Sequence record: OR887633
Reading direction: 5' to 3' (one strand)
DNA: 64,000 bases
DNA from: Shigella phage vb_GEC_SH_GT
The translations under genes and the position numbers were made by a program. Positions 26,519-28,964 of the stretch are shown here, piece by piece (positions within the stretch are counted from its first letter, which is position 1; each line of letters begins with the position of its first letter). Below the pieces are notes generated by a model that was given only the letters and a program-made list of their open reading frames with translations, had not been told where the DNA came from and made no database searches.

Positions 26519-26537
<19 letters not shown>

Positions 26538-27007
26538 TCAGTGATAAAGCTATTTAAATTTTGAGCATATTTCTTTTCATCATAAATCTTTTGCTGTCTG
26601 CGTAAACGCCATGGCATTTCAATGAACACGCACCATATTCCTGATAGTACTGCTGCTGTAAAAATATTAACAAGTATAATTAAAAGAATCCAATCTTCCG
26701 TTCTGCCTACTGGACTTTCTCCAAAGAAGCAAAATACAAATGATGTCACAGGAAAACTAATAATATACCACAGAATAACCTTCTTATCTGTGAACCAATC
26801 AGCGTTCGTTAACTTAGCACGACCATTTTGAATACACACGAATTTATCATCTGTTACAGTAGATGGCTTAACTGCTTGATATCCCATTCTAAACTCCCTA
26901 ATCAGCAAATTTTTCATATCTTCGGAACAGCCATTCCAGTCAACTCTATCAACTGAAATGCCATCATCCCCATCATCTAAATCATACCAGCGAGTTTTTA
27001 AAATCAT
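26519..27007 (-). CDS. Two-TM membrane protein, tandem paralog 1
   Basis: 162 aa; two hydrophobic helices; tail ...[11 protein letters not shown]. Confidence 0.55.
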
Positions 27008-27378
27008 TTGATTTTCCTACAATCATTCACGAATTCTTTCATTGATTCATTTTCAATATAAGACATGTAGTTATTATATTCTTTTAATTGTATTTTGTAA
27101 TCCTTTTTTCTTTGCCAATTTATTTTAAAATTATCATAATGAAAATATAAAATAATACCAAAGAATGAAAATAATGAAATCGCTATAGTATAATGAAGTT
27201 CACTCCAAACTTCTATTATATCTACTATACCGCTGACATTACTGCGGATGTTTAAAATAATACAGTCAATCATTAATCCAATAAGACTACCCGCAAGAGC
27301 TGCAGCCAACGCCACAGCAAAAATTAAAAATGACTCAGAAAACGAATATTTGACTTTATTTAGTTTTGGCTTTTGCAT
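27004..27378 (-). CDS. Two-TM membrane protein, tandem paralog 2
   Basis: 124 aa; two hydrophobic helices; tail ...EFVNDCRKIK. Confidence 0.55.
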   Translation of the reverse strand: MQKPKLNKVKYSFSESFLIFAVALAAALAGSLIGLMIDCIILNIRSNVSGIVDIIEVWSELHYTIAISLFSFFGIILYFHYDNFKINWQRKKDYKIQLKEYNNYMSYIENESMKEFVNDCRKIK

Positions 27379-27773
27379 CGTGATTCCTTAACAAATTTCA
27401 TAATTTCATCAAATTCATACGCGGCAAGTTTAAGCTGATGTTCCTTTTTAATCTTTTTACACTGTGCTTTCCAATCACGTACACGTTTACGATAATGTCT
27501 TCCTTGATACCAATATCCTATCCAATTTACAGGTACTAATAAAAGTGGAACTATTAATGGAAGAATTAGCATTAACACAAGTATTTCGCCAGAATCAATA
27601 TCAGTCATAACATCTAAAACACCTCCAATAATCAATAGAATTACAAATGATATGAGTATAACAGGACCTATTAACACATCAGTAGAAATTATCTGGCGCT
27701 TTAATTCATACTTTAAGGGTTTACTTGGAAGATACATTGATGGCTTTGACATATTCTCTACATTCCTTAACAA
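27360..27773 (-). CDS. Two-TM membrane protein, tandem paralog 3
   Basis: 137 aa; two hydrophobic helices; tail ...KFVKESRCKSQN. Confidence 0.55.
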   Translation of the reverse strand: MLRNVENMSKPSMYLPSKPLKYELKRQIISTDVLIGPVILISFVILLIIGGVLDVMTDIDSGEILVLMLILPLIVPLLLVPVNWIGYWYQGRHYRKRVRDWKAQCKKIKKEHQLKLAAYEFDEIMKFVKESRCKSQN

Positions 27774-28329
27774 ATTTTTCTAGTAATAAATCGCTTTCAA
27801 AACTAGGATTTTCCACGAATTTATCAAAAAGATCATCAACAATAGTTAAGACATTCTTTTTACTAAGAATACGTTTATTTTCATGCTTCGTTTCAGAATC
27901 AACTATAAGAGTAAAGAAATATTTCTTTCCCTGAAATTTTACTGTAGTATCAATATAGAATAAATTTGACTTTTGTAAGTTACGTTTAAACCATGCGTCA
28001 CTTAAACTATAAACACCGAGATAATCAAAATCGTCGTTTAAATAACAAACTGTCCATTCAGGAGAAATGAAATCAGTAAATTCAACATCAAAATCGCATG
28101 TCAATGAATAAATTGATTCAATACTGTTAATAAGTATTCCAGGACGTATTAAAGACTTTTTACCTCTGGAAAATCTTCCAGAAAGACTTTCATCAGTTTC
28201 ATATGAAGAACCCCAATAATAATTACGTCCTTCTGCCAGGCGTTTAAGAGCATTTAGTAATTGGTCTGGAACATCAACCTGTCTTTGGAACTCTTCAAAC
28301 ATTGAATTGAAATCACTTTGCATTTTCAT
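27721..28329 (-). CDS. Hypothetical protein
   Basis: 202 aa; C-terminus ...EKFVKECREYVKAI echoes the tail motif. Confidence 0.55.
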   Translation of the reverse strand: MKMQSDFNSMFEEFQRQVDVPDQLLNALKRLAEGRNYYWGSSYETDESLSGRFSRGKKSLIRPGILINSIESIYSLTCDFDVEFTDFISPEWTVCYLNDDFDYLGVYSLSDAWFKRNLQKSNLFYIDTTVKFQGKKYFFTLIVDSETKHENKRILSKKNVLTIVDDLFDKFVENPSFESDLLLEKFVKECREYVKAINVSSK

Positions 28330-28350
28330 TCCTATTTACTCCAAGTAATA

Positions 28351-28364
28351 GGGGCCGAAGCCCC
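28351..28364 (-). terminator. Stable hairpin with UUCG tetraloop
   Basis: ggggc-cgaa-gcccc 3' of the 28371-28964 ORF. Confidence 0.55.
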
Positions 28365-28370
28365 TTATCA

Positions 28371-28964
28371 TTATTTCAGAGAATTAATATATTCCTGAAC
28401 ATCGGCAGAGGTAGTTTCAACCCCAGAAATATTACCATTAAAGGTTTCAACTCGAGCAAGAGTATCTTCAATATCAACCTTAGTCAGCGCTGCAATTTCA
28501 ACTACATCATCAGCAGTACTAATTCCAAGTGCATTCGCTGCACGAGTTTCACGGATATATTCCAATTTAACTGCAAGTTCTTGGCGAGCATCATCTAACT
28601 CAACTACTTTCTTGGCGATTTCAATTCGCATTTCAGCATAACCATCAGCTTTAGTAGTCAGCTGTTCAGCTGTTCGACGATATAGCAAACCGAGTTTAGC
28701 ATGCATTGTTACATCTTGACCTTCGGAAAGAAGCTTGCGAATTTCACGCTCTTTTGATTCAGCCTGTTTATTCTTTTCAACGATAAGTTCACGAATACGT
28801 TTTTCTTCATTAATAGATTTAACAGAAGCAGTTTTTAGATCTTTAATTTTATCAAGCAGTTTTGCTGCTGCGGCAGTATACTGTTCTTCAACAGATAGAT
28901 TTTTAGCCATAGCAGAACCAAGTTTAGTGCGAATAAACTCAACAATTTTCTTCAGTGTGTTCAT
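28371..28964 (-). CDS. Helical coiled-coil protein (weak PspA/IM30-like resemblance, unverified)
   Basis: 197 aa; long charged heptad-like helices throughout. Confidence 0.5.

Follow-up and report, generated by a model that had tools for sequence, protein, structure and literature searches.

A common C-terminal tail on diverse proteins encoded beside e.6, a PspA/IM30-like gene of T4-type phages

PspA-type systems and the phage protein e.6

Homologs of the bacterial protein PspA are typically encoded in operons with small transmembrane (TM) partners, namely PspB and PspC in E. coli, LiaI in B. subtilis and the two-TM protein PspM in mycobacteria, whose genes lie directly downstream of the PspA-type gene (PMC11237479). 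We describe here a block of five minus-strand genes, e.2 to e.6, in the genome of Shigella phage vb_GEC_SH_GT (record OR887633), a 64,000-nucleotide stretch of which was analysed and is referred to below as the window. Judged from profile comparisons and a predicted fold, e.6 is a divergent PspA/IM30 homolog, within the ESCRT-III superfamily. Downstream of it are encoded a soluble protein, e.5, and three two-TM proteins, e.4, e.3 and e.2, which carry versions of the same short C-terminal tail. We tentatively propose that this tail docks the proteins to e.6.

The window is Tequatrovirus DNA; over positions 26000-29600 its identity is 97.7% with phage Lutter and about 95% with hundreds of T4-type phages. 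The five open reading frames (ORFs) correspond to genes e.2, e.3, e.4, e.5 and e.6 (msp7 to msp3 in GenBank L13089) of T4, the best-studied of the lytic phages. All five are labelled hypothetical in public records, and scans of e.2-e.6 against Pfam, PHROGs and NCBIfam return only families of unknown function or sub-threshold noise. The sequence-only reading that preceded this work knew of no function assigned to the block. This is true as far as experiment goes: a literature search for e.2-e.6 phenotypes returned nothing except the 2021 genome announcement of phage Metamorpho, and no study of e.6 function was found. However, the link between e.6 and PspA is already in print and thus not new, since that announcement remarks that the e.6 homolog aligns to PspA (4WHE) with HHpred at 99.9% (PMC7862958).

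The e.6 protein of the window is 100% identical to that of T4. Its AlphaFold2 (AF2) model, with a predicted local distance difference test (pLDDT) score of 74, has helices at residues 2-22, 25-80, 86-145, 154-160, 165-175 and 186-196; for residues 2-19 the hydrophobic moment is 0.45 and the mean hydrophobicity 0. When the model is compared with the PDB by Foldseek, the top 8 matches are all Vipp1 (best E=8.6e-4), followed by the archaeal ESCRT-III protein CdvB2, with PspA (7abk) lower. A family profile that includes divergent members (profile A2) matches Synechocystis Vipp1 (sll0617) at E=6.7e-5, collinearly over residues 1-~146, and eight of its nine top PDB matches are Vipp1 or PspA. The gathering cut-off of the Pfam family PspA_IM30 (PF04012; 33.9 bits) is passed, over profile positions 2-143, by two members of the e.6 family, P0080 with 35.1 bits and P0082 with 39.0 bits. 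Both are encoded on T4-like contigs, adjoining uvsX and gene 41, and their subgroup aligns with the T4-type e.6 profile over its full length (hhalign 99.9%, E=2e-31, 198 columns). When close relatives of e.6 are scanned against Pfam as single sequences, PspA is not among the matches, which are coiled-coil noise; PspA_IM30 is matched by the more divergent members alone. Likewise, e.6 profiles aligned by hhalign with the single E. coli PspA sequence match weakly and over the N-terminal ~45 residues only. The product had been described from its sequence as a long charged helical protein, to be compared with the PspA/ESCRT-III fold; the Foldseek, profile A2, P0080/P0082 and hhalign results support its membership of that superfamily.

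According to the model, e.6 would share with PspA, Vipp1 (IM30) and LiaH the order of helices, that is, an amphipathic α0, a long α1/α2-3 hairpin and shorter C-terminal helices, as well as a length of about 200 amino acids (aa). It differs from these proteins, as known here from sequence and model, in being encoded by a lytic phage, in its great divergence and in a conserved C-terminus of its own, ...EYINSLK in e.6 and ...EY[IL]xSLK in the family. A search of 1.84 billion representatives retrieved only 45 e.6 clusters, all of ~200 aa, forming a tight, phage-only family. In several database records, homologs of e.6 appear under the name 'host specificity protein'. Sequence and fold give no support to this name, which looks like a propagated mis-annotation.

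The likeness could be taken to mean that e.6 is a PspA mimic, acting on the host Psp response via PspF or PspB/C, while the genes downstream are unrelated accessories. As is generally known, E. coli PspA is both an effector and a negative regulator of PspF (see PMC11237479), and e.6 retains the helices α0-α3 that align with PspA/Vipp1. However, it is only remotely similar to E. coli PspA, and it has been conserved among phages infecting such different hosts as Aeromonas, Edwardsiella and Klebsiella. Moreover, T4 shuts off host transcription, so repression of PspF would add little. Mimicry of this kind is thus very unlikely.

The C-terminal tail and the proteins that carry it

Kyte-Doolittle hydropathy places TM segments at residues 77-97 and 106-131 of e.2, 17-39 and 61-81 of e.3 and 26-49 and 57-80 of e.4, and none in e.5 or e.6. 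The termini of e.2-e.4 are rich in K/R, and their loops are short (7-21 residues) and acidic, so that by the positive-inside rule all three are predicted to form the same two-helix N-in/C-in hairpin with a cytoplasmic tail. The tails, e.5 and e.6 would then all be found on the cytoplasmic side of the membrane.

The consensus of the tails is hydrophobic-[E/N/D]-x-F-[I/V]-x-x-C-[R/K], with the hydrophobic residues on one helical face. The e.3 tail reads EFVNDCRKIK. The e.5 protein ends in ...KFVKECREYVKAINVSSK, its motif stretch being KFVKECREYVKA... (L183..F186-V-K-E-C190-R191). The e.4 tail is a variant, ...KFVKESRCKSQN (FVKESRCK), in which the Cys is displaced, and the protein also has an internal DWKAQCKKIK.

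Apart from the tail, most of these proteins appear to have little in common. When narrow profiles of orthologs are compared by hhalign, e.3 and e.4 match over the second TM segment plus tail (94.7%, E=6e-8), the match persisting at E=6.6e-5 after removal of the tails, and reciprocal jackhmmer searches link the two at 1e-24 and 1e-28. In contrast, e.2 matches e.3 over 19 tail residues only (E=9e-6), and e.5 matches e.2 and e.3 over 11-16 tail columns only. The wide jackhmmer families seeded from e.2 and e.3 do have 30 members in common, but these are not taken as proof of homology since the narrow profiles match in the tail only. The sequence-only reading had presented e.2, e.3 and e.4 as three tandem membrane proteins united by their tails, with e.5 as a protein related to them. 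The membrane topology is indeed common to the three, but homology beyond the tail is restricted to e.3 and e.4, and the Cys of e.4 is out of register; e.5 also has the tail, but nothing beyond its ~15-20 residues ties it to the others.

The e.5 proteins constitute a true but very divergent family, held together by pairwise links of 1e-5 to 1e-11 along a chain of genera. When 15 of the sequences (13-46% identity) are aligned, no residue except Met1 and the tail residues F186 and C190 is invariant. The fold of e.5 is not readable from its predicted model (pLDDT 55).

The e.2 gene of the T4 reference sequence is broken: the frame leaves and re-enters in the region of the loop and second TM segment (NC_000866 67449-67969; 2950-3470 of locus L001). 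It is annotated there as 102 aa, an unannotated 51-aa ORF retaining the C-terminal tail, while the window and many relatives have an intact protein of 162 aa. The break may be either a pseudogene of the laboratory strain or a sequence error.

The distribution of the tail was followed with the strict pattern [FW][IV]..C[RK] in 48 loci centred on e.6, taken from 8 annotated phages of different genera and 40 IMG/VR contigs. There are 138 matches in coding-strand ORFs, all of them 6-31 residues from a C-terminus and all, except one in a short (48-aa) ORF, downstream of e.6; ORFs of the non-coding strand yield 10 scattered matches. Among the 328 six-frame ORFs of the window, the pattern is found in e.2, e.3 and e.5 only, each time near the C-terminus, and none of the 245 ORFs in positions 1-50 kb of T4 contains it. 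The occurrence of the tail in the window is thus far beyond chance.

After masking of the tails, BLAST sorts the 130 distinct proteins with the motif into at least 27 clusters without detectable mutual similarity. They include some soluble proteins (90-290 aa) and many two-TM proteins (84-197 aa). By these comparisons the tail is a portable C-terminal module, ~15-20 residues long, placed on otherwise unrelated cores. In nearly every locus a tailed gene, coding for an e.5 homolog or for a protein in its slot, follows e.6 after 24-81 nucleotides (nt), including in Aeromonas phages that have no two-TM members; in loci of the phage AS-yj type the tail reads F-[I/V]-x-Y-C-I. Enterobacterial phages have one to four additional tailed proteins, mostly with two TM segments. 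Since a tailed e.5-type gene is present in nearly all loci, the core conserved unit is e.6, a hairpin (see below) and the tailed e.5-type gene.

Two other sets of C-terminal sequences were encountered in these loci. Behind the most divergent e.6 genes, which are the Pfam-positive ones (L056 5661-7293, L052 6650-7383), lie genes for three paralogous alpha/beta proteins, two of which have an N-terminal TM anchor, and for a 57-60-aa TM protein. All end in variants of the tail, I-[LIV]-x-x-A-R, such as ESILANAR, KAIVHRAR, KTIIARAK and DSIIKHAR. Between e.4 and nudE, other T4-like genera have tandem genes for small soluble proteins that all end in ...GGWVSSSxEC or ...W.PSSC (L004 5706-6500; L005 5519-6310 and 6375-6764; L006 5716-6790; L009 5299-5825). 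This is a second, distinct shared C-terminal motif, and it is absent from the window.

Part of the tail coincides with the ribosome-binding site (RBS) of the next gene. AGGAAA, read as R-K, precedes the ATGA start/stop overlaps of e.2 and nudE, AAGGAA, read as K-E, precedes the starts of e.4 and e.3, and the e.5 and e.4 tails have 16 identical nucleotides at the Shine-Dalgarno region. The tail might therefore be a nucleotide-level by-product, either of the RBS and translational coupling or of a recombination junction left by gene shuffling, and AGR codons, which make up 47 of the 95 Arg codons in the tails, are in keeping with this. The remaining codon data speak against it. Across 101 distinct DNA instances, Cys is encoded by TGT 54 times and by TGC 47 times, all six Arg codons are in use (AGA 26, CGT 26, AGG 21, CGC 11, CGA 9, CGG 2), and the Phe and Ile codons vary as well. 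Position -3, which is not part of the search pattern, is L, I, F, V or M in 98 of the 101 tails, position -2 being mostly E, N or D. In e.5-type proteins 11-31 codons separate the motif from the stop, with no start site or RBS near it, and its F and C are, as said above, nearly the sole invariant residues of that family. The RBS or recombination origin is extremely improbable and effectively refuted by the codon data. The earlier view that the motif is only partly explained by the RBS is supported: the R-K codons do overlap the RBS, but the F-[I/V]-x-x-C-R core, on the evidence of its codons, is selected at the amino-acid level.

A catalytic, redox or metal-binding role of the Cys was rejected on account of its replacements. 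In e.4-type orthologs the position is occupied by C, V, I, M, S or A, and in a divergent clade it is A, which argues for a packing rather than a chemical role. A kinship of the tail with the sequence MKTYQEFI.E, by which T4 internal proteins are targeted to the capsid, was likewise rejected: proteins carry that sequence at the N-terminus, Glu precedes the Cys in only about a third of the tails, and inner-membrane proteins are unlikely cargo.

A proposed Psp-like membrane module

The genes of the block are organized in two parts. Six nucleotides after the e.6 stop codon lies the hairpin aGGGGC-UUCG-GCCCCu, which divides e.6 from the chain running from e.5 to nudE. A comparable hairpin, with a stability of -13 to -21 kcal/mol, is found at this position in all but one of ~40 distinct loci; the exception, L051, has a frame-broken e.6. 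The divergent contigs L052 and L056 have it as well. Position and stability are kept while the stems differ (GGGGC, GAGGGC, GGGAGAC, CCGGGGA, GGGCCTC and others), the loops being mostly UUCG. The hairpin of the window is probably a partial terminator or a stabilizer of the mRNA 3'-end. Many copies have no clear U-tract and may stabilize the transcript rather than terminate it. Beyond the hairpin, e.5, e.4, e.3, e.2 and nudE overlap one another, e.3/e.2 and e.2/nudE as ATGA.

Sigma70-type promoters are annotated upstream in T4 and Lutter, consistent with early expression. A GTTTAC...TATAAT pair precedes e.6 (window 29007-29031), with a spacer of 12 nt compared with 17 nt in T4. This promoter is possibly non-functional in the window phage, in which case e.6 may be read from promoters further upstream.

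The timing bears on the possibility that the tail is a self-association helix, by which the tailed proteins oligomerize independently of e.6, for instance in superinfection exclusion, immunity or a holin/antiholin-like function. The a/d/e-type spacing of its hydrophobic residues (-3, 0, +1, +4) would fit coiled-coil packing. The small e.2-e.4 proteins, with two TM segments, N-in/C-in topology and a charged C-terminus, resemble class II holins and T4 Imm (general knowledge), and the genes adjoin the endolysin gene e. Nevertheless, no sequence similarity to Imm is found, the annotated promoters point to early rather than late expression, and T4 lysis is known to depend on a dedicated holin, t, not on these genes. 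Neither Imm nor the class II holins have a tail in common with soluble proteins. Aeromonas T4-like phages retain e.6 and the tailed e.5 without any of the membrane members. Self-association of this sort is therefore unlikely. Superinfection exclusion as such, which the sequence-only reading had brought up, gains no support from these data, nor is it contradicted by them.

We favor, with a probability of roughly 40%, a model in which the block is a phage Psp-like membrane-maintenance module whose tails bring partner proteins to a shared docking target; the most plausible candidate for this target is e.6. If e.6 behaves as PspA, Vipp1 and LiaH do, its N-terminal amphipathic helix would let it oligomerize at the inner membrane, on the cytoplasmic side, and in the infected cell it would stabilize or remodel that membrane. 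As e.6 has a translation start of its own and a stable hairpin behind it, its level should be set apart from that of the downstream genes. The products of the translationally coupled chain e.5, e.4, e.3 and e.2 would each end in the amphipathic tail helix, a portable docking tag bringing structurally different proteins to one partner. In this scheme the membrane proteins might anchor or recruit that partner, much as LiaI, PspM and PspB/C anchor or recruit the PspA homologs they work with; e.5 might be a soluble adaptor or regulator. As a whole, the module would keep the inner membrane sealed and energized, preserving the proton-motive force, during infection. T4 shuts off host gene expression; the host would thus be unable to induce its own psp operon, and the phage presumably needs its own copy. 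The proposal that e.6 is the receptor of the tail stems from its being the only protein that always accompanies tailed proteins.

This module resembles the bacterial ones in that small TM proteins are encoded directly downstream of a PspA-type gene, and PspM, like e.2-e.4, has two TM helices. It differs from them in that e.2-e.4 have no sequence similarity to the bacterial partners (LiaI and PspM not having been compared directly), and in that the phage proteins are several unrelated cores united by a tail, which the bacterial partners are not known to carry. For the tail itself, the nearest analogy, drawn from general knowledge, may be the docking of MIM peptides to MIT domains in eukaryotic and archaeal ESCRT-III systems, which likewise involves a short, portable C-terminal amphipathic helix with a basic end. 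Unlike a MIM, the phage motif has another consensus and resides on the putative partners rather than on the ESCRT-III-like subunit, and the block contains no MIT domain or Vps4-like ATPase. A more specific version of the model, which we hold to be possible though somewhat doubtful, assumes that an e.6 polymer is steered by interchangeable adaptors of the e.5 and e.2-e.4 types through a MIM-MIT-like docking code. Its use might be the sealing or reshaping of the inner membrane after injection, in lysis inhibition, or against membrane-depolarizing abortive-infection systems.

A rival interpretation assigns the tail to a receptor other than e.6, be it a different protein of the phage or a host factor, such as a membrane protease (FtsH, for example), a chaperone, or a component of the divisome or the Psp system; e.6 would be a mere neighbor, transcribed early along with the tailed genes. 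Degrons and partner-binding peptides typically look like this tail, which is short, basic, C-terminal and portable, and the computed data do not identify its receptor. However, the motif genes are confined directly downstream of e.6 across genera that are otherwise reshuffled there, and the motif is absent from the rest of the window and from positions 1-50 kb of T4. Docking to a non-e.6 receptor is accordingly doubtful, although it deserves more credence than self-association.

Returning to the module with e.6 as the receptor, several considerations weigh against it. The contact between tail and e.6 is inferred rather than directly observed, and adjacency in T4-type phages can reflect joint early regulation instead of physical interaction. 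The e.6 protein of the window and T4 has no Pfam PspA_IM30 match even at E<=10, so that its membership in the family is transitive, by way of P0080 and P0082, which pass the Pfam cut-off and align to T4-type e.6. With hidden Markov models (HMMs) of e.2-e.5, E. coli PspB, PspC and PspD score <=6 bits, and T4 Imm scores <=2 bits with those of e.2, e.3 and e.4; the two-TM and e.5 proteins match no Pfam or NCBIfam family. The model of e.5 is too poor, at its pLDDT of 55, to place the tail helix as exposed. Finally, the broken e.2 of the T4 reference means that at least this gene is dispensable in the laboratory.

Coordinates, neighboring genes and significance

The five ORFs exist as first delimited from the sequence, except that the start of e.4 has been corrected. 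It is most likely the ATG at 27752, as annotated in T4, and not the TTG at 27773. Table 1 lists the features.

Table 1. Features of the e.2-e.6 block, in window coordinates, with the position of the tail motif where present
Feature	Position	Strand	Basis or remark
e.6, 197 aa, divergent PspA/IM30 (ESCRT-III superfamily) homolog, as judged from profiles and model	28371..28964	-	Profiles, AF2/Foldseek
GC-rich UUCG-tetraloop hairpin after e.6	28350..28365	-	Terminator-like match; stem-loop/terminator annotated in relatives
e.5, 202 aa, soluble alpha/beta protein, tail on C-terminal helix	27721..28329	-	Motif nt 27757-27783
e.4, 130 aa from ATG, predicted two-TM N-in/C-in, basic C-terminal region, e.3 paralog	27360..27752	-	Variant tail nt 27372-27395
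e.3, 124 aa, predicted two-TM N-in/C-in	27004..27378	-	Motif nt 27016-27033
e.2, 162 aa, 76-aa soluble N-terminal domain, two TM segments and basic cytoplasmic tail (predicted)	26519..27007	-	Motif nt 26531-26548

The block is bordered by denV, the lysozyme gene e and nudE on one side and by e.8 and the tRNA cluster on the other. Some of the surroundings differ from those in T4. A 58-aa ORF (29008-29184, minus strand) stands in place of T4 e.7, which has 111 aa. Within the tRNA cluster, a 210-aa ORF with an HNH-type motif (...HIDGNNKNH...CPNCH...; 30827-31459, minus strand) is found where T4 has segB, encoding a GIY-YIG endonuclease. Two further minus-strand ORFs, 24319-24792 and 25278-25574, begin with the T4 internal-protein capsid-targeting sequence (MKTYQEFITEA in the first). 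They occupy the place of T4 ipII/ipIII, yet differ from both.

The genes themselves and the e.6-PspA link were already known. What appears to be new, and undescribed in the literature consulted, is the tail motif with its family of proteins, its portability, seen on no fewer than 27 cores, and the strictness with which it is linked to e.6. Whichever partner it serves, the tail offers a 9-residue handle, conserved over those unrelated cores and in many phage genera, that can be mutated, used as bait or employed in the search for further members. Should the tail prove to encode docking to a PspA/ESCRT-III-type polymer, the bacterial or phage branch of that superfamily would have its first defined adaptor motif, and the block would be a Psp/ESCRT-III-type system with a novel set of adaptors. 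If the module indeed protects membrane integrity or the proton-motive force, the phage would bring its own PspA, which would explain how the membrane and its proton-motive force are kept up after the stress responses of the host have been shut off. The common docking tag would make such a phage-run membrane-protection system testable.

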